A program made the position numbers and the translations under genes. From Eledone cirrhosa (lineage: Eukaryota): DNA of 64,000 bases. Positions within the stretch are counted from its first letter, which is position 1; every line of letters starts with the position of its first letter. The notes under the pieces were generated by a model. That model saw only the letters and a program-made list of their open reading frames with translations, had not been told where the DNA came from and searched no databases. The stretch is taken from contig OZ024742.1 in NCBI GenBank assembly GCA_964016885.1, positions 132,370,001 through 132,434,000 on the forward strand, written 5' to 3'. Below, in pieces: positions 1 to 64,000 of this stretch.

Positions 1-1
1 T

Positions 2-2179
2 AAGAAGTATAAATCTGTCTTTCAAAAGGACCTTGATTCTACCATATTGGACCTAAAAAAGTCTAAAAAAATCCATGTCCACTCGGACAAAACTGGTAAC
101 TTGTATCACATGGATATTGAAGATTATAATGAGTTCATATATAAAGAACTCAGGAAAAATTATAAAAAATCTAATAATGCGTCACTCACCAACATCAACA
201 ACAAAACACACAACATAGTAAAAAAACTAAACATTGAAGATAGAACTGAACCTTTGGCATTGAAAAGACCACACTTCAACCTGAAGGATCATAAATCAAA
301 CTTTAACTCAAATCCTTCTATAAGACTTATATGTCCCTCCAAATCTGATATTGGAATAATTAGCAAAAAAAATTTGGATGGAGTCATCCCACAAATAAGA
401 AAACACGTTAATTTACCACTCTGGGAAAACACTTCCCAGGTAATTAACTGGTTTCAAAATATTAGATGTAAATCTTCTGCTTCATTTCTACAATTTGATA
501 TAGATAATTACTATTCTTCTATATCAACTATACTCCTGAACAAAGCATTGTTATTTGCTAAAAATAGATCTAACTTAACTTTGGATGACATTAATATTAT
601 TACACATGCTAGACTAACACTTATTGAATTTCAGAATGAATACTGGACCAGAAACACATATAGTAATCTATTTGATATTACTATGGGTTCAAGCGATTCC
701 GCCCAAATTACTGATCTTGTGGGCCTCTTTCTCCTTTTCAACATAAATGCCTCCTTTCCCCACCTTAAAGGTGGTTTATATCGTGATGACTGTCTTCTTC
801 TTTCCAACAACCTTAGCCTTTCAGAAATAGAAAAAAACAAAAAGCATATTAGAACTTTCCTTAAAGACTATTATAGTCTTCATATTACTTTTGAAAAAAC
901 AAGTAAAGTAGCAAATTTCCTAGATATAACTTTAGACTTAGCTACGGGTATCTACCAACCTTACCATAAACCCAACCAAAACTTACACTACATACACTCA
1001 CAATCTAATCACCCTAAATCTATCCTTAAAAACCTTGCATATAATATATCACTTAGAATTTCTAACCTTTCTTCTAACCAAGATGTATTTGATAAAAATG
1101 CGACCTTCTATAACGAAGCTCTAGATAGAAGTGGCCACAAAAATAGATTAGAATATATACCTTCTACTAAAAATACTATAAACATACAACCTAATATTAC
1201 CAACAAACACCAAATGAAAAGTACACACCTAAATGCCACCCACATTATACCCCAAAATACCAACAACTCTTCTAATATAAAGTATAGTAACTCTCAAAAA
1301 ACTACTCATCATACAACTCTAATAAATGTTAATAATAAAACCCCTAATAAACAAGATAAAACACCTAAATCTATAAATCTAACTAAAAATGTGCGTGGTG
1401 AAATCATTAACATTAATCCTCCTAGTAAACATCACGATACAACCTATAAAAATAATAAACAACATAGAAACCGTAATAGACGAGTTACTTGGTATAATGC
1501 TCCATTTAATTTACAAATTAAGGATAATATTGCTAAAAAACTTTTTTATATCCTAGAGAAAAACTTCCCGCCAAACCACAAATACCATCAAATCTTAAAT
1601 AGGTCTACAGTTAAATTCTCATACTCAACATCCAATAACATAAAACAAAATATAAATGCCTATAATGCATATAAATGTAAGAATACCATAAGTATACCAC
1701 CAATACATCAAACTAACCATAATATCTCCTCAAATACAGAATTAACGAAAGGTTGTAACTGTAGAAACAAAGCAAACTGCCCATTAAAAGGAAATTGTCT
1801 TGTTAACAACATAGTTTATAAATGTAATGTTAAAACTAAAGATTCTATTTGCTCATATATAGGAGCTACTTCTAACAATTTTAAGGTAAGGTTTGATACC
1901 CACAAACATAGTTTTAAAAATGCCGCACTGGCTAATACAACATCTCTAGCAGAAAAAATCAATAGTTATAAAAATAAGAATATAGAATATGATATGACCT
2001 GGAGTGTGCTCAAAAGAGCCACCCCTTATCAAAATAATAGAAATGAATGTAGATTATGTTCCCAAGAACTATTTGAAATAATGAAATCTAAGGATATCCT
2101 ATTAAATAAACGACAGGAATTAATTATATCGTGTAATCATAAACTAAGAAAAACATTTAAATATTATAAACCTAATTAA
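2..2179 (+). CDS. Hydra-type Penelope-like element polyprotein (RT + C-terminal GIY-YIG endonuclease), 5'-partial, uninterrupted frame
   Basis: Frame is open from the window start (KKYKSVFQKDLD...). RT motifs HSDKTGN, KDHK..P..RLI.P, QFDIDNYY, ITMGS, GLYRDD, NFLDI; linker CNCRNKANCPLKGNC (CxCx5Cx5C); VYKC..YIG..F..R...H and CRLC..E endonuclease motifs. Confidence 0.93.
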   Translation, partial: KKYKSVFQKDLDSTILDLKKSKKIHVHSDKTGNLYHMDIEDYNEFIYKELRKNYKKSNNASLTNINNKTHNIVKKLNIEDRTEPLALKRPHFNLKDHKSNFNSNPSIRLICPSKSDIGIISKKNLDGVIPQIRKHVNLPLWENTSQVINWFQNIRCKSSASFLQFDIDNYYSSISTILLNKALLFAKNRSNLTLDDINIITHARLTLIEFQNEYWTRNTYSNLFDITMGSSDSAQITDLVGLFLLFNINASFPHLKGGLYRDDCLLLSNNLSLSEIEKNKKHIRTFLKDYYSLHITFEKTSKVANFLDITLDLATGIYQPYHKPNQNLHYIHSQSNHPKSILKNLAYNISLRISNLSSNQDVFDKNATFYNEALDRSGHKNRLEYIPSTKNTINIQPNITNKHQMKSTHLNATHIIPQNTNNSSNIKYSNSQKTTHHTTLINVNNKTPNKQDKTPKSINLTKNVRGEIININPPSKHHDTTYKNNKQHRNRNRRVTWYNAPFNLQIKDNIAKKLFYILEKNFPPNHKYHQILNRSTVKFSYSTSNNIKQNINAYNAYKCKNTISIPPIHQTNHNISSNTELTKGCNCRNKANCPLKGNCLVNNIVYKCNVKTKDSICSYIGATSNNFKVRFDTHKHSFKNAALANTTSLAEKINSYKNKNIEYDMTWSVLKRATPYQNNRNECRLCSQELFEIMKSKDILLNKRQELIISCNHKLRKTFKYYKPN

Positions 2180-2656
2180 TAACATTATTTTAGAAATTAA
2201 TATATAATTTAATTTAAATGTTAGTTAACCTATAAATTTAATTTAATTAAAATTCTACTACAGATGAGATTATAAAATATTGTGTAATCATAAATTGTGA
2301 AAAACTTTTAAATATTACTAATATATACTTCGTAAATTAATTTATAGATTAATTTTAATTTATTTAACCTTTTATTAAAATTCCTTTACAGATTAAATAT
2401 AACAAAATATCGTGTATTCAAAGACAGAGAAATATTTTTTAATATTATAGACCTAATTATCGTACATTTTAGAAATATATTTATAATTTGGTTTTAATTT
2501 GGTTAACCTAAAAATTTAATTTAATTGGCTTAAAATTAAAATCCTAATACAGATGGATTGTAGAGTGTCATGTAATCATAGACTGAGATAGGTTTTGGAT
2601 GTATACCTAGTTAATATATTCTTTGCAATTTTTGAAAAAATATGTATATATATGTG

Positions 2657-2719
<63 letters not shown>

Positions 2720-3240
2720 TTATGTATATGTATGTGTGTATATATTAATTTTAATTTCTGTTTACCTATAATTATATTCTACTATAGATAAAATACAATA
2801 TCTGTTTTAATTATTATAAACCTAACTAACATATACTATAGAAATTAATATATAATTTTTAATTTAGTTAACCTATAATTTATATTCTACTACCGATGTA
2901 ATACTTTATTTGTTTTTTTTCCCTATTACTGAATTCATTTCCTAATATTGATACCATAACGTTAATAATTTTAATTTAGTTATACTATAATTAATACTCT
3001 ACTACTATTTAACTTCAAAATTCCGCTTCAAATATTATAAACCTAAGTAGTATACACCTTAGAAATCAATATATTAACTATCTTTAATTTAGTTAACCTA
3101 TAATTAATAGTCTACTTATATTAAAATGCATAATTTTGCCTTCTTTCTTACATTTCCTAATACTGAAACTACTATGTAAACACATATTATGATCTAAATG
3201 CAGATTAATATTCTATGTTTCTTGAAACCTATATTTACTA
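2128..3240 (+). repeat. Degenerate tandem duplications (~130-220 bp) of the ORF 3' end
   Basis: Motifs gtaatcataaact, aaatattataaacctaa and ttagttaacctataa recur at about 2128, 2280, 2410, 2570, 2810 and 3030. Confidence 0.75.
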
Positions 3241-3561
3241 TAATCCCCCCCCCCTATTATTATTTGTATTTATAAGCGTGTATATATGTATGTATATGTA
3301 GGTAGGTATGTATGTTTGGGTGTTTGTATGTGAGTATAAAATTACATATGTGCGCATGTAAATAAGGGTGTATGATTGTGTGTATATATGTATATATATA
3401 TATATATATATGCATATATATGTATATATATATATGTATATATGTATGTATCTATGTATTTATGTGGGTATATGTGTGTATGTATATGTATGCGCATGTA
3501 TACGTCTATGTGTATATGTGTGTATGTGTATATATGTACGTATGTGCGCATGTATATGTGA

Positions 3562-3600
<39 letters not shown>

Positions 3601-3603
<3 letters not shown>

Positions 3604-3897
3604 GATGTTGAATGAATGGAGGCTGTATTTGTAGGGCCATATTTGTTTCATTATATATGTTTCAGGGATGTCATATTGACGATGTGTTGTGCCTTCTTCA
3701 GACAAAATACAATATAGACAGTTTTATAAATAAATAGATTTGACATACCGTTCAACATCGACTTGTATTTGAAAAGTTGATTTGGCAGTATTTTGTCTGA
3801 GGAAGGCATAGCGTATTGTTAGTGTGATGTCCCTGAGGTATGTATGATGAAATAGATGTGGTTTTGTAGATGTAGTTTCCATTTATTTAGTATCGTA
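3601..3897. repeat. Inverted pseudo-LTR pair (arms 3601-3710 and 3788-3897) with exclusively G.T mismatches; HHR remnant
   Basis: Manual ungapped alignment gives 77/110 identities and 33 mismatches, all G opposite T. The minus strand of the left arm reads CTGAAGA...GAAACATATATA. Confidence 0.92.
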
Positions 3898-4049
3898 AAT
3901 ATACTCCAAATACTTGTTGAGTGCTTTTATATCAGTTATAAATATTTACTAGTTGTAACCCAACAATTTAAGTATAACTTTCCATATATATATATATATA
4001 TATATTTGTAGTTGATGTGTGTATGTGTATATATATATGTATGTATATG

Positions 4050-4105
<56 letters not shown>

Positions 4106-4221
4106 TATATGTATGTATATATGTGTGTATATGTATGTGTGTGCATATTTGTCTGACTGTGTGTATTAATTAATTAATTAATTTATTTATTTTATTTCTT
4201 TTATTTCTTTATTTTTATATA

Positions 4222-4282
<61 letters not shown>

Positions 4283-4602
4283 GTGTGTCTATATATATGT
4301 ATGTGTGTATGTATGTGTATGTATATATGTGTGTGTGTATGTGTGTATATATTTATGTGTGTATATGTATTTCTATTTATATATGTATATATGTGTATGT
4401 ATATCCCTTTATTTATGTATGTCTGAGTTGTGTGAGCGTGTGGTTGTGTTTGTATGTGTATACGCATACATGGATGTGTATGTATGTGTATATATGCGTA
4501 TATGTATGTGTGTATGTGTGTGTGTGTATATATGTATATCTATGTATGAGTATGTATGTGTATGTATGTGTATATATATATATATGTGTATATATATATA
4601 TA

Positions 4603-4643
<41 letters not shown>

Positions 4644-4713
4644 TATATGATATGTGTGTGTGTATATATATATATATATATCTTTGTATGTGTGTATGTG
4701 TATATGTGTGTAT

Positions 4714-4758
<45 letters not shown>

Positions 4759-4812
4759 GGTATGTATATGTATGTGTGTATATACATGAGTGTGTTTATA
4801 TATGTGTATAGA

Positions 4813-4877
<65 letters not shown>

Positions 4878-5078
4878 TGTGAATGTATATATATATATCT
4901 ATGTGTGTATATGTATATATATATGTGTGTATATATGTATATGTCTATGTATTTATATGTGTATGTGTATGTGTCTCTATATGTATGCGTGTGTGTATGT
5001 GTATATGTATTTATATGGTGTGTGTATGTATATGTATGTGTATGTATGTGTTTATGTATATGTGTATGTATATGTATG

Positions 5079-5145
<67 letters not shown>

Positions 5146-5212
5146 GTATATGTATGTATATTGATGTATATTTTATATTTTACTTGTTTATATATATATA
5201 TATATGTATATA

Positions 5213-5264
<52 letters not shown>

Positions 5265-5855
5265 CTTAATATTTTTCTTTTTTGTTTTTCTTTTTATTTC
5301 TAAATTTATAGATACATTTATAAATAGGCAGTCTGCTGACACCACTAAATACTGACCTCTCCCCCCCCCCCCTACTTTCTGTATCTGGATCTAAATATGT
5401 GTGGCAGTGTTTATGTGCGCGCATTAATGTCCATATGCTTATGATAATAGTATATACACATATATGTGTGTGGGAGTGTGTGTGTGTATGTATGTTCGTG
5501 GTTGTGTGTATGTTTATGCGTATACGCGCGTGTGTGTGTGAATGTATGTATATGTGTGAGTATATGAATGTGTATATATTTATTTTTATATTTATATGTT
5601 TATATGCGTATACGTATTTTATCTGTAGATTATAAACATACAGACACATTAGCCCTGAATTTTTGTATTTACATACATCTTTTCGACATGCGTATGCATG
5701 TGAACATATATTTTTATGCATATCTGTGAACGAAGTTACTTACATATATACATGCACCTAACTGTATAAACTTTTTGTGTTTTCATTGGTCAATTTGAAC
5801 TCTGTTCCCAAACAGACCTGTAATTTTGAATTGTTGTTATTATCAATAAATATAT

Positions 5856-6009
5856 TTCATTATTTCTGAAGACGGCATATATATGTGTTGGTATGTATAT
5901 TTAATTTTGATAGTTTGTATAATTTTGTATAATTTTGTACATAGATCTGTTGAATATGCATGCCAACTCTAACACATATATATCCTAGAAACGATCGTTA
6001 AATAATGAA
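5856..6009 (+). ncRNA. Type I hammerhead ribozyme (PLE pseudo-LTR)
   Basis: Stem I ttcattattt/aaataatgaa (10 bp), CTGAAGA, long stem II (atatatatgtgtt/aacacatatatat), GAAA, palindromic stem III ACGATCGT, predicted GUU cleavage. Confidence 0.85.
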
Positions 6010-6562
6010 CTTTTTTTGTTTAATATAAGGAACTGTTTCATTGTTTTATTCATTATTTTTTTAATATTTTATATATATATATATACATTTTTAAAATCTA
6101 TTTTTTATTTACTTCAATCGGGATTTTAACTTGTAAACTTTTTTTAATTTCTAATTTTCAATAATGATTTCCACTGTGAAACCATAACATCTAGAATTAA
6201 GTTAGTTTCTCTTAGTGGCTTGTGGCAAATTTTATTGTCCAAGCGGAATGTAGGGGTAGTAGTGAGGCCCATTAAGAATCATATTCTGCCACTACCACTG
6301 GGTTTCGGTCAACCGCAAATACCAAGACGGCAAGTAGCAAATTATAGCCATCTCACATTACAGACCTGGATGGGGGTGCTTGTTTTGTCGGGGTAAGGGG
6401 GGACCTGCCTGGGCGAATTTCGTATAGTGTTTGGGTGGTGGATAGTCAACCTCCTTCGGACTCACAAGGGAGCGGACGAAGGTCTCAAGAGCACCTGCTT
6501 TGTCCGTTCCCTTGTCGATTCAATTTGGAATACCTCGAGAACTTAACCTTATTATGTAAGAA

Positions 6563-10207: not shown

Positions 10208-10800
10208 TTTATTAAAATAACAGATTAAAGTTTAAGCGAATAATCGGTGCTTTCACCCTAAACAGGATCTTCTGAAACAAACAAAGTCAATCTGTGAACG
10301 CAGAAGTGAATATTTCAAAAAACGTGCAGCCGGAGGAAGACAGGAAGACGATACTTTGGTTCGTGGAAACGTTCCCTAGCAAAGAACGGGAAAAAAACGA
10401 ATATAATACGTCATTATTGGAGCGGTGAAAAACAATTACACGCAAAGACAGAACCACTTTTATGGTATCAAAGAAGTCATAGACTAATATTCCCTTAGGT
10501 GGTTCATAGAGACGTTCTCTGGCAATGAAGGGAAAAAACGAAGATAATACGTCATATGTGGAGCGTGGAGAACAATTGCACGCAAAGACAAAAAACACGT
10601 CAATGGTATAACTGAAGTCGTAGACTAAAATTCTAACTAGGAAACCAAATGATTCTCCGCTTCAGAGTTAAGAATAAGTAAATAAAATACAGAGGTAATT
10701 GAAATTAAATAAATACATACACGCATCCAAATACGTACATACACAAGCATACGCGAAAACATTCGCCATAGGTATACACATACACGCACATATAAATATC

Positions 10801-10833
<33 letters not shown>

Positions 10834-11588
10834 ATACAAATAATTAAATAAACGTATATAAATAAATAAATACGTATATGACAAGCTCACACACATACCT
10901 TCATCTAAATACACAAATGTTCGGAGACGACGTCAACCAAAACACGACGTACACATATACACACACCCAACATACGTACTAAACCCGCATACTCACACAG
11001 ACGCAAAACTCACGTATACACATAACCAAAAGCATATGTACAAGAATATATAAAATATACGCCATAACATATACGTACGAGAAAGTATACATACCTTCAC
11101 AAAACATACAGGTAATATATACTTACCTATGCAAATAAGTAATGGTATGAACATAACATATACTTAGCTACCACATCAAGACGTAAAATATCCGCGTATA
11201 GATCGTAGTATTCGTTAGGGTATAATGTGGGGCTGTAATACAGGAAAGTTTTGTGCAATTTATGTTTACAAGGCGAAATTGCCTCAGATTTTTTGTTTAA
11301 AATGTGGTCTGTGGCGTAGAGTATTTCCAGGGCCTCAGCTGCGCAGATCTCACATCGTCTTTTATTTCCGTTATACGATCTAGCCCTAGCTAGGTTCTCC
11401 CAATGTAAATTATATTGGGTGTGGTTGTCTTTTAGTCTCCAGATATAAGCTGAAAGTGACGTCATATTCATTCTTAGAGGGGAACGAAAAGAATGGGTAT
11501 GCATGTAAAGACGCTGCTTGAATCTATTGGCGGTTAACCATGGGACGTGGGTGTTTCAACCTTACATTTGTAGACAATGTTACTAGAG
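10208..11588 (-). mobile_element. 5'-truncated Hydra-type PLE (GIY-YIG fragment, 3' UTR, pseudo-LTR)
   Basis: ORF 11127-11504 (HTHSFR..TSLSAYIW..CEICAAE..LNKKSE..CKH) is homologous to 57160-58550. HHR-like motif with CAGAAGA core at 10220-10295. Confidence 0.9.
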
Positions 11589-12009
11589 GTTTGTATGTGT
11601 ATGTATGGATATGTTGATATATATGTGTGTATGTATGTATGTGTATATGTATGTGTATGTATATATATATACATATATATGTGTGTGTGTATGTATGTGT
11701 GTGTATATATGTGTGTATGTATATATGTGTGTGTATGTAAGTGTGTGTGTGTGTGTGTGTGTTTGTGTACTTTTAAGAAACCACTGGTAAATGAAATAAT
11801 TGCCTTATATTGTTTATTACATAACTATTAAGCTATGTAACCTACATAGAACACTCTTTTTTCCTGGACCTTTCCGACGGAATTACTACATTTATACAGC
11901 TCCAACCGGGATTGATTGAAGCATATTCTATATTACATATTTGGTTGGCACTTTCCAGCCCGATTAGTTGAGCACTCTACAGTTTTCAGGAATTTAACCA
12001 ACATACACC

Positions 12010-27170: not shown

Positions 27171-27412
27171 TATATATATATATATATATTTGTATGTATA
27201 TATATGTTGAAATATACGTCTGTCTCTATCCAAGAAAATCTTGAACTGTTTAGGTATCTTATCTTGGTTATGTCAATATTTATAAAACAAACTTTGTATT
27301 TTATCTGATGAGGCGGTCACTACTAAGTTCTCGCCTGGTGAAACTGAACCCGAAACAACACACTGTGTGTAGCAACCTTCTCGATTGCACACCCTTGCAC
27401 TCTTCGTCAAAC

Positions 27413-27482
<70 letters not shown>

Positions 27483-27676
27483 ATATATATATACATATAT
27501 ATATATTTATGTATATATATATACATATATATATATATTTATGTATATATATATATACATATATATATATTTATGTATATATATATACATATATATATAT
27601 ATTTATGTATATATATATATACATATCTATACATACATATATATGTATATATATATAACATCCATATAAAATATAC

Positions 27677-27824
<148 letters not shown>

Positions 27825-29525: not shown

Positions 29526-30175
29526 ATAATCACTTAAGCTTTCATTCAAACTTCCTCTGGATTTCTGCTACTTTATTGAATTCTTCTTCAGCCTAACCTC
29601 TTGCTAAGATTTAGCCATCCGCAGTTGTTTATGAACGTATCCTTCATCGAGTTTACCAATCTGACCGTTTCTGCCTATCACACGAAAATAAATTTAAGTA
29701 TTCAATATCAGGACATTAGAAGGGAAAATGATGGAAGAACCGTACACACAGTTAAGATCAAGAACTTCTGTACCAGTGATATATGGATTCTATTTCACAA
29801 ATGTTTATCTAATGGCATGCTGATGTATCAAGTCTGCGAATTAAGTTTGTAAAGAAATAAAATAATAATAAAAATAATATGTGTTATTGTCGAGTAGGTT
29901 ATAGCTTGCGTCCATATGAGAACCAGTTACATACAATATATACAAATAGTATATTGAATTAATCTAATTTCATTCGCCTCCTGTAATAATTAGCGTATCA
30001 TTATCATTGAAAATATCAGTAGCTACTTGAAAAACGTCCTGAACAAAAGAACATAACAAATAGAATAAGGAATATAACAATCTGAATAAGAGTGGCGAAG
30101 TAGCCTGGGCTACAATAAACTAACACTTTTCCAGGAATTATGTTATTTCTATTTGGTTTGTAAATAGCAATGCAG

Positions 30176-30787: not shown

Positions 30788-32127
30788 TATTAGTAAAAGG
30801 AAAAAAAATGCTGACAATTTTTTCCCAGTGAAAAATAGTTTAAGTAGGAATAAGTATAAATTAGTAATAAGTATTGGTTAGTATTCAGTTTTAGTTTTAA
30901 GTTTTTACCGGTTGCGCATTTCTAATGCTTTTCAAAAATAATTTTCAGATAAAGCGCTCGTGATGTTTGCTCTAATCTGATCAGTTTTGGAAAAACATTC
31001 TAACACATGCCAAAGTACTGCCAACTACAACAACGAAACCCACATTAAAAAAAATGTGATATACCTAAATGTGGCATATATGCATCAACCTAATAGAGGG
31101 TTCGGAATTCTATTTCAAAGATGGACAACGTTTTATAGTAAAACACAATTTCACATGCGCATCAGAAAATCTAATATATGTATTAACCTGCTCAGGTTGT
31201 CGAGAACAATACATAGGCCATACTAAAATCAGCCTCCGCCAACGCATGACTGTCCATAGATCCCAAATTAAAATGCGGGAATACAGAAAAATAAAACTGA
31301 GTGAAAACATTGATACCTGTGCCGCCCAAAATCATCCCAGCTTTTGAATCTTTCCCCTCTACAAATTTAAAGATAATGCCACCCACACCCAGCGCATCAG
31401 CAAGGAATCTCACTTTATTAACAAATACGGACCCCATCTAAATCCGTCTCCCTAAGACGAACCCACACCATACACACGTCAACATACATACCTACATCAG
31501 AATACATCCTACATACATTTCTATCCACATATAAACACAATGACATACGTAAACACACATGTTCTATGGTGCAACACAGATATACACAAATTTGCATACC
31601 TTTTGATGTTTATAGATATAAACGTGCCGACACACACACATACATATACGCACACATGCATTGCACACTGATGGGCACATACATATTTGTACACAAGTAT
31701 TCCCATACGGCAGGGCCTAGTGGATATCCCCTTGCAGTACGTACAATATGGACACTCACACACACCTTGGTGTTATGACAATACTATACATAATTTCACC
31801 CCTTTTATTATTAATGTTTTTGATGTTCTTTTGAGAGAATCGTTTTTGCAAATTACTGAAAATATCGAATAATGCACACCATTTTTATCAGTATCACAAA
31901 AATACTGGTCCATCCACACACAGACAGAGACACACACATACACACATACACACACATACACATACACACGCGTACACTAATATACAAACATACACACACA
32001 CACACACACTTCTTCGTATAAGACAAGAGCTGAAAAATATCTTTCAACATGTTAAAATATCTCCCACACACGTACACACACATTCCTACTGACCGAACTT
32101 ATTCCCTCTACCACGAACCAGTCTGCT

Positions 32128-32158
<31 letters not shown>

Positions 32159-32257
32159 TATTTGTCTTAATAGACACTTGATCTGTTGACCTTTCAACAT
32201 GACAGCAATTCACACACACATCCCTACTGACCATTATCACAACAATGAACCTCTTTA

Positions 32258-32299
<42 letters not shown>

Positions 32300-32762
32300 T
32301 TGTCTTAATAAACTTATTTTTCAGTGACTTCTCAATCAGGCGAAAAACGACACTCTACGACAAACCTACATTTGGCGCAAAATCAATTTTTAACATTCAC
32401 GTGACCGCTACAGACCAATCAAAATTGTTTTGACTACAATAATTTTTGCAACACGAATTGGTGCGAAATGTATAGTACTCACTCACGTGACATTCAACAA
32501 CCAACCAAATCTTAATACCTCTGGAGCCACTTTTTCACATAAAACGGGAAGAATTTCCAAAACTAATCAGATTAGAGCAAACATCACGGGCGCTCTATCT
32601 CAAAATTATTTTTGAAAAGCATTAGAAATGCGCAACCGGTAAAGGCTTAAAACTAAAACTGAATACTAACCAATATTTATTACTAATTTATACTTATTCC
32701 TAATTAAACTATTTTTCACTGGGAAAAATTTGTTAGCATTTCCTTTTCCTTTTACTAGTATA
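30788..32762 (+). mobile_element. 5'-truncated Neptune-type PLE (GIY-YIG fragment) with inverted pseudo-LTRs
   Basis: 31069-31453 C..C, NFTCASENLIYVLTCSGCREQYIG. 30790-30990 is the reverse complement of 32557-32760. Confidence 0.88.
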
Positions 32763-32878: not shown

Positions 32879-32909
32879 ACAAGGAGAAAGAGACGATTAT
32901 GAGGAGGAC

Positions 32910-33600
32910 AATATCGGCCTGAGAATCAACACCAAAAAGACCAAGGTAATGAGAACGGCCAGCAACACAGGTCCAGTGATCAGAGTCAACCAACAGGACC
33001 TCGAGGAAGTCGATAACTTCACCTATCTGGCCAGCATCCTGACAAGCAGCCGCGACGTGGAGCTCGACATCAACTGTCCTTTCGGCCAAGCCGTGTGTTC
33101 CAGCGTCTGTGCCCAGTTTGGTCGTCTTCATGCATTAGCACCAATACCAAGCTCCGCCTGTACAAGAGCATCGTGCTGCCGACAGTTCTTTATACGAGCG
33201 AGACCTGGAAGAGTACGGCGAAAATAGAGAGACGGCTGTACGCTTTCCACCAGCGGTGTTTGCGAAATATCCTTCGTGTCTCCTGGCGTAACCGAGTGCG
33301 AAGCGAGGAGATACTGCTGAGAGTCGAGTCGTGGACGCTACAGAGAATGGTCACGGAGCGTCGGTGCCGTCTGGCTGGCTATATATTCTGCGTCTGCCAA
33401 ATGAACGGCATTCGAAAACAGCGATGAACAGGACTCCGCCTGGCGGTGAACGGAGGCGACGAATGTTCCGGAAGGACATGATGGCAGCCAATAGCACCTG
33501 GCACGGTCTCGAAAAAGTTGTCGCTGATCGTGACCGTTGCCGAGTACTTACTGATCGATGCGCCGAGCGGCGCGTAAAAATCTGAGACTGAGACTAAGAT
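32910..33600 (+). mobile_element. RTE LINE 3' fragment (inverted relative of 38387-39078)
   Basis: FTYLAS, KLRLYKSIVLPTVLYTSETW, FHQRCLR; short-repeat tail ctgagactgagactaaga. Confidence 0.92.
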
Positions 33601-33666: not shown

Positions 33667-33928
33667 AGATCAAAAGATGGTTAAAGGAGTTCAATATATT
33701 TTATTATGCGCATTTCAAAGACAAACATCATCAAACAATAATATTTGTGTTTTCATCAGATAAAACAGGAGAACATGATATGAAGGCTAAAAAAACACTT
33801 GTTGATAGTGCAGTTTTAAATCAACATATCTTTTGATCTTATATTATGCATACTCCAGTCCCACAAACTGTAGAGTGCTTCTTATCCGATATCTGCATTG
33901 CTTTATTGTACTACAATAAAACTCACCT

Positions 33929-35497: not shown

Positions 35498-38110
35498 TGA
35501 AAACAGGGAGAAAGAGACGATTATGAGGAAGAAAAATATATTGTATTCCTTTTCTTTGTCTCTCACTCTCTCTTTTTTCTCGGTTAGAAAATGATTAAAA
35601 CGAAATGTTTTACGTTGTGTGAAGTGTTAAGGTATTAGTTGATTTATTTATTATTTAACAATGGCATTTATTTATCTATTTAATTATCGTCTATTACCGG
35701 TTTCTGCATTTATATGCATTATCAAATGATAGTGAAATGTATTAGTGTGATGTCGCACATGTTAAACAGAAGGTGCAGAAAGAATAATGTTATTTACAAA
35801 CAAGGTTTAAGAAGTGAAAAGAAAAAAGAAAAAGGAAAGAAAAACGTGCATAATGTGGAACGTAAAAAGTCAATGTGGAAGAAAAAATAATAATGTTATT
35901 TACAAGCACAGTCATTGAAGTTAAGCAGTTCAAAATGTGTTAATATCGCACGAGTCCTTAGTTGAACCATGGTTCCGTGAAGGAGTCAAATGGTGGACTG
36001 TGGTTTGATATGATTTCCCTTTTTAGAGAGTTAATATGCAGGGGGAAGCAATTCTTGCTGGGTGATATTTAATTTATTTGAGAAAAAGGATTAGGTAGGG
36101 TGTGAGGGAGGTAACTCTTGTAAATGTTTGATGGTTTGTTGCAGTTTTAGATTGGTCCGATTGGTCCGATTTTTAGGTCATTGAGTAGTGGTTTAAATTG
36201 ATTAATGAAATGTGTTTCCTCATTGGTGCGTTGGATGAAAGTAGCGTTGTCTATGAATTTGTAAATGGGGAAAATTTTAAAGTTTGGATGTTGGTTGAGA
36301 GCACAATTGGCGATGTGTTCACTAAATGCTATCTTTCTGTATTCCTGTATTTTAATTTGTGATTTATGGACGGTCTTACGTTGACGGAGGCTGTTTTTTT
36401 GTCTCTCCTATGTAGTGCTCTTGACAGCCTGAGCAGGTCAAAACATAGATAAGGTTTTTAGATGCACATGTAAAGTTGTGTTTAACTGTGAAACGTTGTC
36501 CTTGTTTAAAATGGAATGTTGAATCTTCTATTAGATTTATGCATATGCCACAGTTGGGCCTTCCGCATTTTTTTACTATAAGGTTTATTGTGAGGTTTTG
36601 TTGGATTTTGGCTTGTGTGAGGATGTTTTTTATGGATTTGGGTTGTCTTTTGCTCTTTATGATGTTGTGTGTTTGGAGGATATTGTTCATTCTTGGGTCT
36701 CTTTTTAGTAAAGGAATATTCTGGAGGATGGTGTCGAATGCCTCATTGTTGAGGGGGTTGTGTGTGGAGATGTATGGTAGAGTTTTTTTGTTGCGGTTCA
36801 CTCCTGGGTTTGGGGTGTCTGAGTTCCTGGATGTCTAGTTTTAGGGCACGTTGGAATCCATTGGTGATTAGGGATGGCGGGTAGTTTCTGCTGATAAGTG
36901 TGTTTTTAATTCTTCTAGTCGTGTATAGCATGTGTATTTATCTGAAACTATTGTGCAGATCCTTCTGGCTAGGTTATAAAGTATTGCCATTTTGGTGTGT
37001 CTAGGGTGGCACGAGTTGAATGGAAGGTATTGTTTGGAGTCTGTGGGTTTGTAGTATATGTCTGTTTCTATTTTGTTGCTTGTCTCCTTGATGAGGATGT
37101 CGAGGAAAGGGAGTTGTTCATAGCTGTAATCCATTGTGAATTGTAAGTTATTGTTGAGCTCATTCAGAAGGGTTTTTAACTCAAACACTCTATCTATACT
37201 TTCATGCCAGAGGATGAAGGAGTCGTCGAGATTTCTCTTCCAGTTCTTTTCTATGTGTTGGTAGAAGTGGTTGCCGTATTTGTCTAGAACTTTTCGGTAC
37301 AGAATGGTATCCAAATATCCCATGACAAGGTTGGCGTATGAGGGGGCCACTTTCGTGCCCATGGCAGTCACACATTTCTGTCTGTAGTATTTGGCATTGA
37401 ATTCGAAGAAACTGTTTTTCAAAATGAATTTGAATCCCTCCAACACAAATTCTTTAGGGATGCGCTGTGGAAGTTCACTGTGGAAATGTTCACTACGGAA
37501 ATTTTCCAATCCTTTTTCTTAAATAAATTAAATATCACCCAGCAAGAATTGCTTACCCCTGCATATTAACTCTCTAAAAAGGGAAATCATATCAAACCAC
37601 AGTCCACCATTTGACTCCTTCACGGAACCATGATTCAACTAAGGACTCTTGCGACATTAACAGATTTTGAACTGCTTAACTTCAATGACTGTGCTTGTAA
37701 ATAACATTATTATTTTTTCTTCCACATTGACTTTTTACGTTCCACATTATGCACGTTTTTCTTTCCTTTTTCTTTTTCTTGTCACTTCTTAAACCTTGTT
37801 TGTATATAACATTATTCTTTCTGCACCTTCTGTTTAACATGTGCGACATCACACTAATACATTTCACTATCATTTGATAATGCATATAAATGCAGAAACC
37901 GGTAATAGACGATAATTAAATATATAAATAGATAAATAAATGCCATTGTTAAATAATAAATAAATCAACTAATACCTTAACACTTCACACAACGTAAAAC
38001 ATTTCGTTTTAATCATTTTCTAACCGAGAAAAAAGACAGAGTGAGAGACAAAGAAAAGAAATACAATATATTTTTCTTCCTCATGATCGTCTCTTTCTCC
38101 CTGTTTTCAT
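35498..38110 (-). mobile_element. 5'-truncated Neptune-type PLE (RT + GIY-YIG, disrupted) with ~600 bp inverted terminal duplication
   Basis: AMGTKVAPSYANLVMG, WKRNLDD, LPFLDI, YYKPTD..SCHP, KCGRPNCGIC, NLIYVLTC..YIGET at 36130-37509. 35498-36090 is the reverse complement of 37510-38110. Confidence 0.92.
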
Positions 38111-38386: not shown

Positions 38387-38389
<3 letters not shown>

Positions 38390-41300
38390 TAGTCTTAGTC
38401 TCAGAATTTTACGCACCGATCGGTGCATCTATCAGTAAGTACTCGGCAACGGTGACGATCAGCGACAACTTTTTCGAGCTGTGCCAGGTGATTTTGGCTG
38501 CCGTCAGGTCCTTCCGAAACATTCATCGCCTCCGTTTACCGCCAGGCTGAGTCCTGTCAATCGCTGTTTTCGAATGCCGTCCATTTGGCAGACGCAGAAT
38601 ATGGCCAGCCAGACGGCACCGACGCTCCGTGACCATTCTCTATAGTGTCCACGACTCGACTCTCAGCAGTATCTCCTCGCTTCGCACTCGGTTACGCCAG
38701 GAGACACGAAGGATATTTCGCAAACACCGCTGGTGGAATGCGTACAGCAGTCTCTCTATTTTCGCCGTACTCTTCCAGGTCTCGCTCGTATAAAGCACTG
38801 TCGGCAGCACGATGCTCTTGTACAGGCGGAGCTTGGTCTTGGTGCTAATGCATGAAGACGACCAGACTGGGTATAGCCGCTGGAAAACTGCGGCTCCTTT
38901 GCCGATCCGACAGTTGATGTTGAGCTCCGGGTCGCCGCTGCTTGTCAGGATGCTGCCCAGATAGGTGAAGTTATCGACTTCCACGAGGTCCTGTTGGTTG
39001 ACTCTGATGACTGGACCTGTGTTGCTGGCCGTTCTCATGACCTTGGTCTTTTTGGTGTTGATTCTCAGGCCGATATTTTCCGCACTCTCTTGTAGTGATA
39101 TTGTTAGGGCCTGATATAGGCCTGATATTGTTAGATCTGCACTGTTTTCAGCGATCAAAGCGATGCCCTCGGCAAATGCTAGGTCCCTCAGCCTCGACTA
39201 CCCTCTCCATGTGATTCCTCGACCTGGTCCTTCATCCATTCACCTAAGTACGAAATCGGCTGCCAGCTGGAACAACAGTGGAGAGAGAATTCAACCCTGT
39301 CTTACTCCGGAGCCAATGTCAAAGAACCCCTCACACTGGACTCAGTCCGCACGCAGCAGCTGGGGTTTTCATGCAGTGCCTTGAAAATGGCGATGAATCT
39401 TGCAGGAATGCTGCTACAGTTGCGCATCATTCCACACCGACTCCCGGTGTACACTGTCGAATGCCTTCTGGAAAACAATAAGATTGACAGCCAAAGACTG
39501 TTGTAGCTCAACACATTGTTCGAGAATGTTGCGTATTGTAAAGATCTGTTCCGTGCAAGATCGATTATTTCGGAAGCCGGCTTGTTCCTCCCTGAGCACA
39601 GAGTCGACGCAGCAGCACAGTGCAGAACGCCTTGCCTGGGACTGACAGCAATGTGATACCACGTCAGTTGTTGCAGTCTGCCAGGTTTTGCCTTCTTCGG
39701 CAGTTTGACGATGACACCACGCATTCCACTCAAGGGGAGCCCGACCAACTCTCCAGCAGTGGTTCATCAAGTCCGTCAACGCCGTTATTGTGCTCTCCTC
39801 ACCCAATTTGAGCAGCTCAGGAGAGATCTCATCCAGTCCGCCTGCTTTGCTGTGCCTCAAGTGGCTAATCGCATCTCTCGTCTCTTGTTTGGTGATATGG
39901 TCCTCGCAGACTTTGAGTACCTCAGTGGTTGTTGGAGTCTCTGCAGTCAAGTTTATCAGTGTGACCCGATTTGGTTGGTTCAACGTCTCCCAAAAGTGCT
40001 CCATCCATCTCGGATCCTGTTCCGCTCCAGTGGTCAACGTCTTGGCATTTTAGTCCTTCACTGGCATGCTGGCACCGCTCGACTTTTCTCTCAACTCCCC
40101 CGCGATGCAGAACAGTGCTTTTGTGTCGTTTCGACCAGCAGATTCCTCTGCATCAACCCGTTTTTCTCCACCCAGTCACGTTTGTCCCGCCGGCAGCTTC
40201 GCTTTACCAGTCGGTCGATTTGGCGGTATACGGCATCTCTTTTCTTTTGGTCTTCCTGCGACCTGGTAGAATCTCGCTCGACTTTTGCCTTTTTTCGTCT
40301 GTCAATCAGGTCCCACGTTGGTTCTTGGATCCATTTTCCCCTACTCGTTCCTCGTCTTCGGTCAATAGTTTCTTGTGCTGCCTCAGTCACCGCTGTCGTA
40401 AACATCGTCCATTGATTTTCCAGATCACTCAACTCCCGGAATCGGTTTTGTAGCGCCAATTGGTACAGTCGCATTTGACCGGGATACTTCAGCTTCTCCA
40501 CTGCATATGGCTTTGGTCTTTCCTGTCGTGTCCGTTTCTTCAGGCGCAGCTGAAGTTTCGCACACAGTAGGTGGTGGTCTGAGCCCAAAGTCCCCACCTC
40601 GGTACACTCTGACGTGACTTTCCGAGGACCGCCAGCGCTAGTTGATGCAGATGTAGTCGATCTCTTTTCGGCTTTTCTGGTCCGGAGACTGCCAAGTAGC
40701 CTTGTGAATCTCCTTGTGTTTGTAATAGGTGTTGCTAATGCCCAAGCTGTTGATGGCACAAAACAACTGCAGTCTCTCACCGTTGTCCGTGGTGACCGCA
40801 GCAGAACCGAATGGCCCAGTGATCTGTTCCAGTCCCTGTTTGTTGCAGCCAATCTGAGCGTTTAAATCACTGATCAGTAGTTTGCTGTCATGGCTGGGCA
40901 AGTTATTAAATGTGTCCTGCAGCTGTTCGTAGAAGGCGTCCTTGTCGATGTCGGTTGCGTCATCAAACGGTGCGTAGCCCTGGACCACAGTGATTTTCGC
41001 ATGCCCACTTTGAAAACAGGAGGTTATGAAGCGCGCGCTGACTGGCTCCAATCCGATCAATGCTCGAGTTGCTCGGGCGCTAAGCACGAATCCAAAGCCA
41101 TGTACGTGCTTGTCTTGGTGTCCAGAGTAGAGCAGAGTTGTGTCCCTGCTGCCACTCATCTTTCCGCTGCCGGTCCAGCGCATTTCACTCACGCCCAGAA
41201 TGTCCAGTTGTCAGTGGTCGAACTAACGAAATAGCTGGGACAGCTTTGTATAGTATACGCACCTTCCAATTTCCAATTCGCATCTTTGTTTTGGTGCTCA

Positions 41301-55818: not shown

Positions 55819-58634
55819 TTTATTAAAATAACAGATTAAAGTTTAAGCAAAGAATCGCTGCTAAATCCAGCATCGTTGATTTCATTGATGACGCACCGAT
55901 TAGTTTTAGGGTAATCCTTAGTTACAGCATTATGTAGTAGTTGATGGTAAGTACTGCGCTCCACTTGATATAAGTTGCCAGTTTTGTCGGAATGGACGTG
56001 CACGGCGTTAGAATCCTTAATAGAACGAATTCTATTCTTCAGGTCTTGCTGGAAGGAATTGCTCATATTCCGAAATTTGATGCTCCGAATGAGTTCCAAG
56101 ACATCATTTTCGAAGGGTAGCAGTACTGGGTTCCACAATGGTTATTATAGGTTTTAAATCCAAATTTATCCTATTTGTTGTCTACTTTTCGCGGATTATC
56201 GAAATAAAAGGCACGCAAACGCAACATTTTAATGAACGCGTCTGTTTTCAGTATCAGGAGTTTTATGTATGTTTTCCTGCTTGGTACGGATATGTTCTTT
56301 GTAGAAATATTCAGATGCTGTTTCTGCATGATGAATATAAGTCAGTAGAGTGCACAACCGAGGGAGCCAAATAGTAATAATAATAAATTTGAACACTAAA
56401 ATCCCTGGCCTTTTCCTTCTTTTCTCTATCAAGGACGAATTCCCCAACGCGGGCGGTGGTTTGTACCGTGACGATGGTCTTTTGACCATGACTAAGTGCG
56501 GACCTCGTGCTTGCGACAGGTTCAGAAAAGAACTCACAGCCTTCTTTAAAGGCTTCAACCTCTCTATACAGGTTGAGGCCAATCTCTCGGTCGTTAATTA
56601 CCTCGACGTTACCCTCAATTTATTGAATGGGTTGTATTACCCGTATAGAAAGCCCAACGATACGCTTAATTACATAAGTTAGCATTCCAACCATCCTGCC
56701 AGCATAACCAAGAACATGGTAAGAAACGTTTCGTTGAGTCTTTCCCGTCTTTCCACCAACGAGCGTATTTTCAACGACCATTCCACTTATTACAATGAAG
56801 CTCTTGCTCGAAGTGGATTTGTCGTTAAGGTTACATATATAGAGTACGAAAATAGACCTAGAAGAAATAGATCCCATCGCATTTGTTGGTATAACCAAGC
56901 ATATAATATGGAGGTGGCCACACCTTTAGCTAAGATCTTTCTTTCCCTTATTACGAAGCATTTTCCCCCTACACATAAACATAGTAAATTTTTTAATAGA
57001 AATACTATTAAAATGTCTTACTCTAAGACTCGTAACCTTGCACATAACATCACAGCTTCAAATTTAGCTAAACTACCTAGCCGTAGGAACACGTGCAATC
57101 CAGTATTTAGTTCTAACTGTAATTGTAGGAATCGGGCTGATTGCCCCCGATCCGGGATTTGCCTCTCTAGTAAAATTGTCTACAAATGTAAGGTTGTAAC
57201 ACCCACGTCCCGTAGGGTCTACATAGTGATAACCGCCAATAGTTACAAGCAGCGTCTTTACATGCATACCCATTCTTTTCGTTACCCTCTAAGAAGGAAT
57301 ATGACGTCACTTTCAGCTTATATCTGGAGTCTAAAAGACAACCACACCCAATAAAAGTTACACTAGGACATCCTAGCTAGGGCTAGATCGTATAACGGAA
57401 ATAAAAGGCCATGTGACCTCTGCGCCGCTGAGGCCCTGGAAATACTCTACGCCACAGACCACATCTTAAACAACAAATCTGAGGCAATTTCGGCTTGTAA
57501 ACATAAATTTCACAAAACTTTCCTGTATTATAGCCCCACGTTATACCCTAACGGATAGTACGATCTATACGTGGATATGTTACGTCTTGATGTGGGAGCT
57601 AAGTATATGTTTGTTTATTCCTTTACTTATTTGCATAGGTAAGTATATTTTACCCGTATGTTTTGTGAAGGTACGTATACCTTCTCGTACGTATATTTGA
57701 TTGTTATGGCGTATAATTTGATATATTCTGGTACATATGGTTTGGATATGTGTATACGGGAGTTTTGCGTCTGTGTAAGTATGCAGGTTCGTACGTATGG
57801 TGGGTGTGTGTATATGCGTACTTCATGTTTTAGTTGACTTACGTCTCCGAACATTCGTGTATTTATATGTAGGTATGTATGTGCGCTTGTTATATACGTA
57901 TTTATTTATTTATATACGTTTATATAATTATTTATTTATTGTATACACGCATACACACAAACACATATTTATATGTGCGTGGTTTTGTATACCTATGGCG
58001 AGTGTTTTCGCGTATGCTTGTGTATGTACGTATTTGTTTGCGTGTATGTATTTATTTATTTCTATTACTTCTGTATTGTATTTATTTACTTTGTTCTTAA
58101 CTCTGTAGCGGAGATTCATTTGGTCTCCTAGTTACAATTTTAGTCTACGACTTCTGCTATACCATTTACGTGGTTGTGTCTTTGCGTGCTATTGTTCTCC
58201 ACGCTCCACATATGACGTATTATCTTCGTTTTTTCGTTCATTGCCAGAGAACGTCTCTATGCACCACCTAAGAGAACAATAGTCCATGACCTCTTTTATA
58301 CCATAAACGTGGTTCTGTCTTTGCGCGTAATTGTTTTTCACCGCTCCTATTAATGACGTTCTTTCCCGTACTTTGCCAGCGAACATTTCCACGAACCAAA
58401 GTATCGTCTTCCTGTCTTCATCCGGTTGCAACGTTTATTGAAATATCCATTTCTGCGTTTACAGATTGACTTTGTTAGTTTCAGAAGATCCCGTTAAGGG
58501 TGAAAGCAGCGATTCTGTGCTTAAACTTTAATCTGTTATTTTAATAAATATTTTCTCTACGGTTCTTATATATTTGATATATATTTATCCTTATCGAGCC
58601 CTCTTTGGATTTTAGTCTTCAAATTTATTATTAT

Positions 58635-62097: not shown

Positions 62098-62432
62098 ATT
62101 ATTCAACATTTTTACAAATGGAAATATTCGCATAATTAAAATATATACTTTATTATATATATTTCAAAGGTACTGTGCTGTTTTTTTCAGTACGTCCTCA
62201 TCAGACAAAATATATGATTTGATATACGACATACCACTACGGTCATGATTATTCTCTTCCCGTATTGTCAGAATTGAATAATCAAGACCGCAGCATTATG
62301 TCATATATCAAATCATATTTTTTGCTGATGAACACGTAGAGAAAAAAACAGCACAGTACCTTTGAAATATTTACAATAAAGGATATATTTTTATTATGCG
62401 AATATTTTGCGTTTGTTAACATTTTGAATAAT
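62098..62432. mobile_element. Inverted pseudo-LTR pair with hammerheads
   Basis: Arms ~62100-62244 and 62286-62430; CTGATGA-ggacgtactg/cagtaccttt-GAAATATATATA. Confidence 0.8.
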
Positions 62433-63423: not shown

Positions 63424-64000
63424 AAAAACAAATAACGAAACGAAATTAAATTTCGTTTCGCTTCTAACTCACTTTTGTATGACTGACGCTTAAACAATTA
63501 AGTTAAAGTGTACATCTACATATGTATACGGAAGTATTAGTATGCATATAAATACACACATGTATACATATGTACATGTACTCAGCTTTTCACTAGACAC
63601 TTTACAGTGAGTGTCAGCTAGTCTGTATGTAACCACACAGGCGGACCGGGTTTTAGAGTCATACGAGTTTTCAAGGAAACACATTTCCTCTATTCCCCAG
63701 AGGGCCAGACAGGAATATTGGACTAGTTTCGATGTTATTACATCTCATCAGCAATATTTACCCATCTTCCGGCTTCTCTGGAGAATTGTAAAAGCACATA
63801 TCGTTATATGCTTTTTCTATGAAAATTAGTAGTGGGTAGACTAATTTGCATAGAACGTGAGTCATTGTACGCACCGGTTCAGCGGAAACGAAAAAAACAA
63901 ATAACGAAACGAAATTAAATTTCGTTTCGCTTCTAACTCACTTTTGTATGACTGACGCTTAAACAATTAAGTTAAAGTGTACATCTACATATGTATACGG
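63424..64000 (-). mobile_element. ORF-less tandem retrozyme-like unit, 469 bp period, running off the window
   Basis: aaaacaaataacgaaacgaaatt...catatgtatacgg is identical at 63425 and 63894; HHR at 63714-63758. Confidence 0.82.
63714..63758 (-). ncRNA. Canonical minimal type I hammerhead ribozyme
   Basis: aatattg-CTGATGA-gatgt(aata)acatc-GAAA-CTAG-TC-caatatt; predicted GUC cleavage; palindromic stem III. Confidence 0.92.

Follow-up and report, generated by a model that had tools for sequence, protein, structure and literature searches.

Compound imperfect (TA)n/(TG)n microsatellites that are moulded by slippage are known as instances of cryptic simplicity. Tracts of this composition also form the 3' tails of certain Penelope-like elements (PLE), as described below. 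The closest elements to have been characterised are the members of the Hydra clade, Hydra-1_Obim among them, whose marks are set out in Craig et al. (2021; PMC8557442). RNA editing is also relevant to such repeats: those of squid are edited in all tissues, mostly at less than 2%, as PMC9068888 describes, and A-to-I sites are under-represented in human dinucleotide repeats according to PMC7302867. The standard hyperediting pipeline, as given in PMC4365171, drops reads with long simple repeats, so that absence of edited tracts in print is weak evidence. A literature search, mostly outside the subscription journals, found nothing on TA/TG mosaic PLE UTRs or on ADAR shaping microsatellites through retrotransposition, and the literature searched held no description of strand-polar, purine-only exchange at ~10 times background.

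The window, a stretch of 64,000 nucleotides from the genome of Eledone cirrhosa, holds four Hydra-type families, A to D, of which D is present twice. Their proteins are mutually just 35-46% identical. The main features are as follows.

1-2179, plus strand: ORF of a young family A Hydra-clade PLE (RT and GIY-YIG), truncated at the window edge
2180-~6069, plus strand: family A 3' UTR, its end point fixed and continued by (TA)n or by a family extension
3603-3983, no strand assigned: foreign segment in a TA run of the UTR, inherited by a family A subfamily
5856-6009, plus strand: predicted hammerhead-like motif whose stem II is long (core recognised by eye; fold z -6.3)
10209-11588, minus strand: family D 3' end, with an EN remnant and a T/G-rich, weakly alternating UTR
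11590-14354, plus strand: start of family B, with a 5' pLTR piece, a decayed ORF and the C/T-rich start of the UTR
14355-23704, plus strand: family C copy nested in B
15247-19285, no strand assigned: 490-bp tandem satellite (8.2 copies, 98% identity) that breaks the family C UTR
23704-25140, plus strand: rest of the family B 3' UTR (TA/TG mosaic), with a hammerhead-like core at 25055-25093
31030-32550, plus strand: 3' end of a Neptune-type PLE (family N) with a CA-rich sense UTR, of opposite polarity
55821-58547, plus strand: second family D copy, a decayed ORF (56395-57537) followed by the UTR

Hydra-clade elements and their boundaries

The part of the family A ORF that lies inside the window (2-2179) is its 3' portion and carries RT and C-terminal GIY-YIG motifs. 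A search of the genome (3.0 Gb in 1796 contigs) gave 62 matches at 95-100% amino acid identity, the window's own copy counted. Single ORFs of 783-830 aa combine YRDD and YIG motifs, which points to an RT with a C-terminal GIY-YIG, a call made on motifs, as a Pfam search of the PLE ORFs gave no hit. In family A ORFs DKG is changed to DKT, the CxCx5C linker is present, and CxxC and CxH lie near the C-terminus. By eye, CxxC is absent before YIG, so that the EN has no CCHH, unlike the Neptune-type EN. The C-terminal GIY-YIG, the DKT, the linker, the CxxC and the CxH all match the Hydra clade as presented in PMC8557442, and so do a putative hammerhead-like motif near the 3' end, insertion into (TA)n and the presence of inverted or tandem partial copies. 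A fixed 3' end followed by TA is seen in 6 of the 12 family-A copies shown, the other copies running into the family extension. Rfam returned no hammerhead hit near that end at E 0.01; Rfam hits of the mir-297/466 type fell under the gathering score and mirror common simple repeats. Two features depart from the published description. Family A has RWR (as in 3/3 ORFs checked) where the published clade has RWK, and its element measures ~6.3 kb, 3.9 kb of it UTR, whereas published Hydra members are shorter than about 3 kb and have short UTRs. The TA/TG mosaic is absent from the six Hydra consensus sequences in the PMC8557442 supplement, Hydra-1_Obim included. Judged by these sequence characters, families A to D belong to a known element clade, the Hydra-clade PLE, and represent a new UTR variant of it.

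The family A UTR finishes just 3' of the hammerhead-like fold and contains TA/TG mosaics at about 2640-2745, 3279-3602, 3984-5261 and 5440-5620. The initial annotation had treated 2640-5720 as a mosaic UTR; mosaics do lie inside it, but the true UTR is 2180-~6069 and half of 2640-5720 is non-alternating. The foreign segment at 3603-3983 has a hammerhead-like core of its own (3659-3701, minus strand), and its transmission by a subfamily suggests that the tails gather and spread other elements. Family B spans 11590-25140, with a TG tract in its pLTR piece (11590-11828) and an ORF, recognised by tblastn, decayed at 12281-14050; family C inserted into it at a TA run. The family C copy consists of an inverted 3' end (14355-14503), an EN remnant (14508-14711), a TA/TG UTR in two parts (14860-15246 and 19774-23200) and a unique end with a decayed hammerhead-like motif near 23640. 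Its UTR includes a locus-specific duplication of 1.57 kb, found in 0/35 relatives. Six intervals had been listed as separate UTRs, and several of these belong together: 14860-15240 and 19780-23200 form one family-C UTR, split by the 490-bp satellite and a palindromic insert, while 23700-24950 is the remainder of copy B's UTR, pieces of 24126-25140 lying downstream of 10/11 B copies. The intervals 10690-11110 and 57600-58090 represent a single family, D, at 88-89% identity. Family N, which served as control, takes its clade name from a CxxC-bearing EN recognised by eye, without a tree.

The window contains further elements. An inverted Neptune-type PLE (35498-38109) lies between pieces of a different RT element, at 32906-33598 and 38388-41210, which gave weak hits to RVT_1 and DUF6451. 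Short elements inside TA runs, many of them palindromic, hold additional hammerhead-like cores, at 19505-19552 (minus), 19681-19728 (plus), 27305-27344 (plus), 29561-29591 (minus), 33712-33759 (minus), 62161-62368 and 63699-63769 (minus). Elsewhere in the genome, five near-identical family-A copies stand in tandem ~6.65 kb apart together with one inverted copy (C6:49.52-49.57 Mb; L075, L079, L084, L166-L168), and a second array comprises three copies (C1:126.84-126.86 Mb). Back-to-back inverted arms with complete UTRs have private changes in common (L172-L175, L177, L178, L181, L182 and others), which suggests that both arms derive from one source element or one RNA. A metagenome scan for relatives produced 102 pattern hits, of which 0 were confirmed.

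Composition, polarity and inheritance of the tails

Dinucleotide counts of TG against CA on the plus strand are 360/61 at 2640-5720, 56/0 at 14860-15240, 553/13 at 19780-23200 and 195/21 at 23700-24950. The earlier description of these tracts as TG-rich and C-poor on the sense strand thus stands, except that family D is hardly a mosaic at all: its UTR is only 21-33% alternating and has 12% C on the sense strand. The polarity extends through the genome. Tracts with G in excess of C lie downstream of 79/87 family-A endonuclease ends and tracts with C in excess of G after 0/87; G exceeds C downstream of 13/14 family-C ends and 3/4 family-D ends, the reverse occurring in none. In family B, TG exceeds CA in 11/11 copies taken from 39 other full-length hits, and does so at least 5-fold in 10/11. 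The TA/TG mosaics belong to 3' UTRs that are passed on within four Hydra-clade families, with TG on the sense strand.

Neptune-type elements had been set apart as CA-rich on their sense strand, with the bias held to be clade-specific. Family N bears this out in 22/23 copies, but another Neptune-type cluster has a TG-rich sense strand (2/2), so the bias is not confined to Hydra elements. The tracts at 26190-26530 and 27480-27820, which had been read as TA/CA tracts outside the elements, are near-pure TA with 17 and 13 CA; as TA/CA on the plus strand is TA/TG on the minus strand, they provide no control. Within the mosaic, 4-5% of the pyrimidines are C, where mutation alone would lead to an equilibrium near 31%. 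Folding predicts that the sense mosaic RNA is 86-95% paired, by way of G:U, and that the antisense RNA or a TG-to-CA swap is 44-54% paired, so that the proposal of the sense RNA as a dsRNA substrate is upheld at the level of prediction. Founder effect and weak selection for self-pairing (U-purine)n RNA are both candidates for the prevalence of TG over CA on the sense strand.

Purine exchange in the alternating tracts

Substitutions were scored in family A from 60 of the 62 matches and 20 copies of a sister lineage; complete UTR anchors were present in 53/60 and 16/20, which make up a 69-copy set. The youngest clade gave 40 hits, 36 of them added and 4 already in the set. The resulting young set has 44 copies at 30 loci, 29 of them scored, a change being called with at least 6 unanimous other loci and identical 6-nt flanks. 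All trees were midpoint-rooted, the young set excepted. In the alternating tracts of the young set, A>G occurs at 36/7270, G>A at 36/5040, T>C at 8/12337 and C>T at 2/457; in unique parts the counts are 10/16269, 3/4611, 7/16298 and 2/5336, respectively. Relative to unique parts of the same copies, the tract rate is thus 8x for A>G (p 5e-11) and 11x for G>A (p 1e-7), and 1.5x, not significant, for T>C. A>G exceeds T>C 7.6x in the young-set mosaic. The 69-copy tree repeats the pattern among clean single changes: alternating tracts have A>G 67/11622, G>A 60/7776 and T>C 21/17157, where the remaining UTR has 73/43101, 73/17970 and 68/60427. In nine pairs of arms, each pair from one locus, 6 A>G and 7 G>A are common to both arms and 5:5 are private to one.

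Sequence context sharpens the strand polarity. When the 29 young loci are pooled with 61 terminal triplets from older copies, TAT>TGT occurs at 79/12404 and the mirror change ATA>ACA at 1/8369, against 3/7722 and 12/10817 in unique parts; TAT>TGT is 16x up on the same trinucleotide there. TGT>TAT is 4.5x up in young copies, relative to G>A in non-alternating UTR, and 1.9x (not significant) in older ones. Hypermutation of TpA on both strands was considered and rejected, ATA>ACA being nearly absent. In the tracts, the difference between G>A and C>T falls short of significance (p 0.27), so loss of G could be a separate, strand-neutral process. Inside pure TA runs new G outnumbers new C by about 9-10 to 1, and in young copies by about 15 to 1, the G entering mostly without length change. 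Per unit, new A in TG runs (5-8/1857) and new G in TA runs (about 15/4571) arise at like rates. Orthologous TA runs differ in length in 103/178 comparisons in which the run is still pure, and TG runs seldom vary (9/416). Beside long variable TA runs there are 13 gains of G and 0 losses. Interruptions of long TA runs track their surroundings, with 475 G against 21 C in TG-type and 9 G against 372 C in CA-type neighbourhoods (copies not being independent); where neither TG nor CA is near, interruptions comprise 24 transitions and 195 A/T transversions. Together these counts establish a strand-polar, two-way purine exchange in the tails, at about ten times background.

The initial annotation had proposed that editing turns TA into TG on the sense strand only, and had itself named symmetric A>G and G>A as evidence to the contrary. 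A>G does lie far above T>C, but G>A equals it, and symmetry is what is found (36:36; 67:60; arms 6:7 and 5:5). As ADAR is unable to make G>A and the flux is balanced, a progressive conversion of (TA)n is not supported. A search among the young loci for a hyperedited copy found none: copies have 0-4 A>G per about 250 A, the per-copy counts are Poisson (variance 0.98, mean 1.24, dispersion p 0.78), and a net one-way excess, if any, does not go beyond about 0.24% per A per copy. The long branch of one copy (L200), taken as a candidate for hyperediting, proved to be one short scrambled stretch with mixed changes. Other families give smaller counts. Terminal changes in family C number A>G 7/721, T>C 8/939 and G>A 4/336 (21 copies used of 35 plus the window), and changes in family B number A>G 8/492, T>C 3/764 and G>A 3/202. 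The CA-polarity comparison in family N, with few alignable sites, yielded 1 transition in about 640 alternating site-comparisons, and the window's 1.57-kb duplication has 6 A/G and 3 T/C differences, which are small numbers.

Unique sequence behaves differently from the tracts. On the 60-copy tree, terminal changes in the ORF are 46 A>G on 905 A columns and 40 T>C on 626 T columns, and internal changes are 16 and 18, so that a sense bias is absent. The hammerhead-holding 3' segment has 16 A>G against 5 T>C on internal branches (p 0.004). In the hammerhead stems of 90 copies, singletons are symmetric, at 3/3578 for A>G and 4/4083 for T>C; of the variable columns shared within lineages, 8 are A/G and 1 is T/C. 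The stem pattern reads as wobble-tolerant drift under structural constraint, and not as editing. A separate observation concerns an excess of terminal G>A over C>T on the sense strand in two UTR segments that are fairly unique: at 2790-3230 there are 16 G>A on 24 G columns and 15 C>T on 64 C columns (p 0.004), and at 5630-6010 the counts are 16 and 5 (p 0.027); the ORF shows none.

An A>G excess that grows with lineage depth had also been predicted, and this is borne out in one lineage only. In a ladder-like lineage of 39 copies the G fraction climbs from 0.31 to about 0.42 with depth (rho 0.92), G blocks become more numerous and long TA runs fall from 38% to 20% of units, the rise in G fraction reaching a plateau at about 0.41-0.44. 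In the sister lineage (30 copies) the G fraction is flat (rho 0.15) and G blocks go up modestly (rho 0.47). The test amounts to two trajectories on a midpoint-rooted tree, with p-values that ignore common ancestry.

Sources of the exchange

What could exchange the purines of these tails and leave the thymines in place? Mispaired, out-of-register, wobble-tolerant copying is the cause we lean towards, without being convinced of it. The copying enzymes would slip in a (T-purine)n tract and pair again in a shifted register, with G:T or G:U wobble letting either purine through and T remaining fixed. Slippage would keep regenerating pure TA runs, G would come into them from TG-rich surroundings and be lost at a similar rate, and C would be scarce for lack of C donors nearby. 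Since the rates in very young copies resemble those in older ones, much of the exchange seems to take place upon insertion or shortly afterwards, which would place it in reverse transcription or second-strand synthesis. Copying of this kind would account for the balance, the purine-only pattern, the heavy slippage of TA runs and a modest gain in periodicity, derived bases lengthening local periodic matches to 8.6 nt, compared with 7.6 nt for random changes (p 0.0025). However, derived bases have a like neighbour at ±2 no more often than expected (27/83 and 35/83, expectation 0.34), no long donor patch was found elsewhere in the UTR, the uncompensated TG-unit indels, about 5, are insufficient to mimic 22 length-conserved single-G changes, and erasure of C falls below the prediction for neutral copying (6 events vs roughly 20, by rough arithmetic). 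The 13:0 gains of G beside long TA runs, the 8 A>G vs 3 G>A of family B, the rise of TAT>TGT well beyond that of TGT>TAT and the similarity of G>A to C>T in the tracts likewise count against copying. Simple one-unit dislocation and long-patch conversion within the UTR have little or no support. A steady state upheld by error-prone copying is thus likely for the tails, in place of one-way rewriting by RNA editing, with a small contribution from editing being possible; balanced flux does not itself discriminate, since any steady state yields balance.

Could RNA editing still supply the G? If ADAR lightly edited the folded (UA/UG)n tail in every round of retrotransposition and the edits became fixed in the genome, up to a few G per 1000 A might be added against an independent G>A loss, with a steady state of ~40% G. 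Such editing is possible but doubtful. It would be a strand-specific source of G (TAT>TGT is about 50x its mirror), and the strand-specific A>G is limited to the part predicted to be dsRNA. The preference for G over C inside pure TA runs, a class that is independent of terminal branch length, and the one-sided gains beside long TA runs also speak for it, as does the finding in PMC9068888 that coleoids edit repeats throughout their tissues, for the most part at low levels. Interruptions that track their neighbourhood would be expected under such editing too. However, it would require a second mosaic-specific process for the 11x G>A of young copies, new A enters TG runs at a similar per-unit rate, and the net one-way excess is small. 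The per-copy counts are Poisson, whereas hyperedited reads as described in PMC5625713 have clusters; the hammerhead duplex is without a private A>G excess; and family C terminal changes are symmetric. The version in which ADAR progressively turns pure (TA)n to TG over successive cycles is very improbable. Its chief evidence is the rise of G, with loss of long TA runs, in one lineage, which depends on a midpoint root and reaches a plateau, whereas the sister lineage is flat and the flux is balanced in every family-A set. The accompanying claim that UA is an optimal ADAR context was overstated, since, for invertebrates, PMC5625713 describes a shortage of G upstream and a preference for A downstream. 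Purifying selection, rather improbable as the cause, would keep U at alternate positions, whether for self-pairing of the RNA or for binding, be it of a UG/UA-binding factor or of the nicked (TA)n target; purines would then drift and C would be removed. A polarity common to four such divergent families fits this, as do the low C content and the hammerhead stems, with their lineage-shared A/G columns and symmetric singletons. Selection is nevertheless unable to lift private A<->G rates 8-11x, pair-breaking changes are no less frequent on internal branches (19:32 breaking to A<->G, vs terminal 52:95), family N functions with CA on its sense strand, and the published Hydra consensus elements in PMC8557442, including Hydra-1_Obim, have short, mosaic-free UTRs. 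It is unlikelier still that the elevated A<->G is an artefact of low-complexity alignment or assembly. Mosaic alignment is ambiguous, two-outgroup polarity gave wrong calls and one shared change was scored in four loci; yet the result survives at least 6 unanimous outgroups and identical flanks, 13/23 arm-pair A<->G changes are present in both arms at separate genome positions, TG runs seldom alter length, and the inheritance and polarity of the mosaic are independent of fine alignment.

Given the abundance of the elements, many one-strand TA/TG tracts in the genome are likely to be seeded by their tails, and retrotransposition would thereby be tied to microsatellite birth. The young copies form a natural mutation-accumulation series. 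If the exchange reflects mispairing by the Penelope RT, it would be informative on the way in which the enzyme deals with repeats. Should ADAR account for a part, the tails would offer an uncommon example of edits in RNA being copied back into the germline genome; editing, set against slippage and loss of G, would hold thousands of tails near 40% TG, a steady-state RNA-editing route to microsatellite composition.

How do the tails compare with the systems they most resemble? They share predicted dsRNA and sense-specific A>G with the A-to-I hyperediting of repeats described for coleoid repeats and lizard Penelope (PMC5625713, PMC9068888). Hyperediting as known from those sources is clustered and one-way, whereas the changes here, known from DNA alone, are dispersed, follow a Poisson distribution and have a counterpart in G>A.

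Frequent gain and loss of units, interruptions that track local composition and a steady-state composition are all shared with cryptic-simplicity microsatellites. Unlike those, the tract resides in a retroelement and has one polarity relative to the RNA; and unlike microsatellites shaped by simple one-unit slippage, it undergoes A<->G changes that conserve its length.
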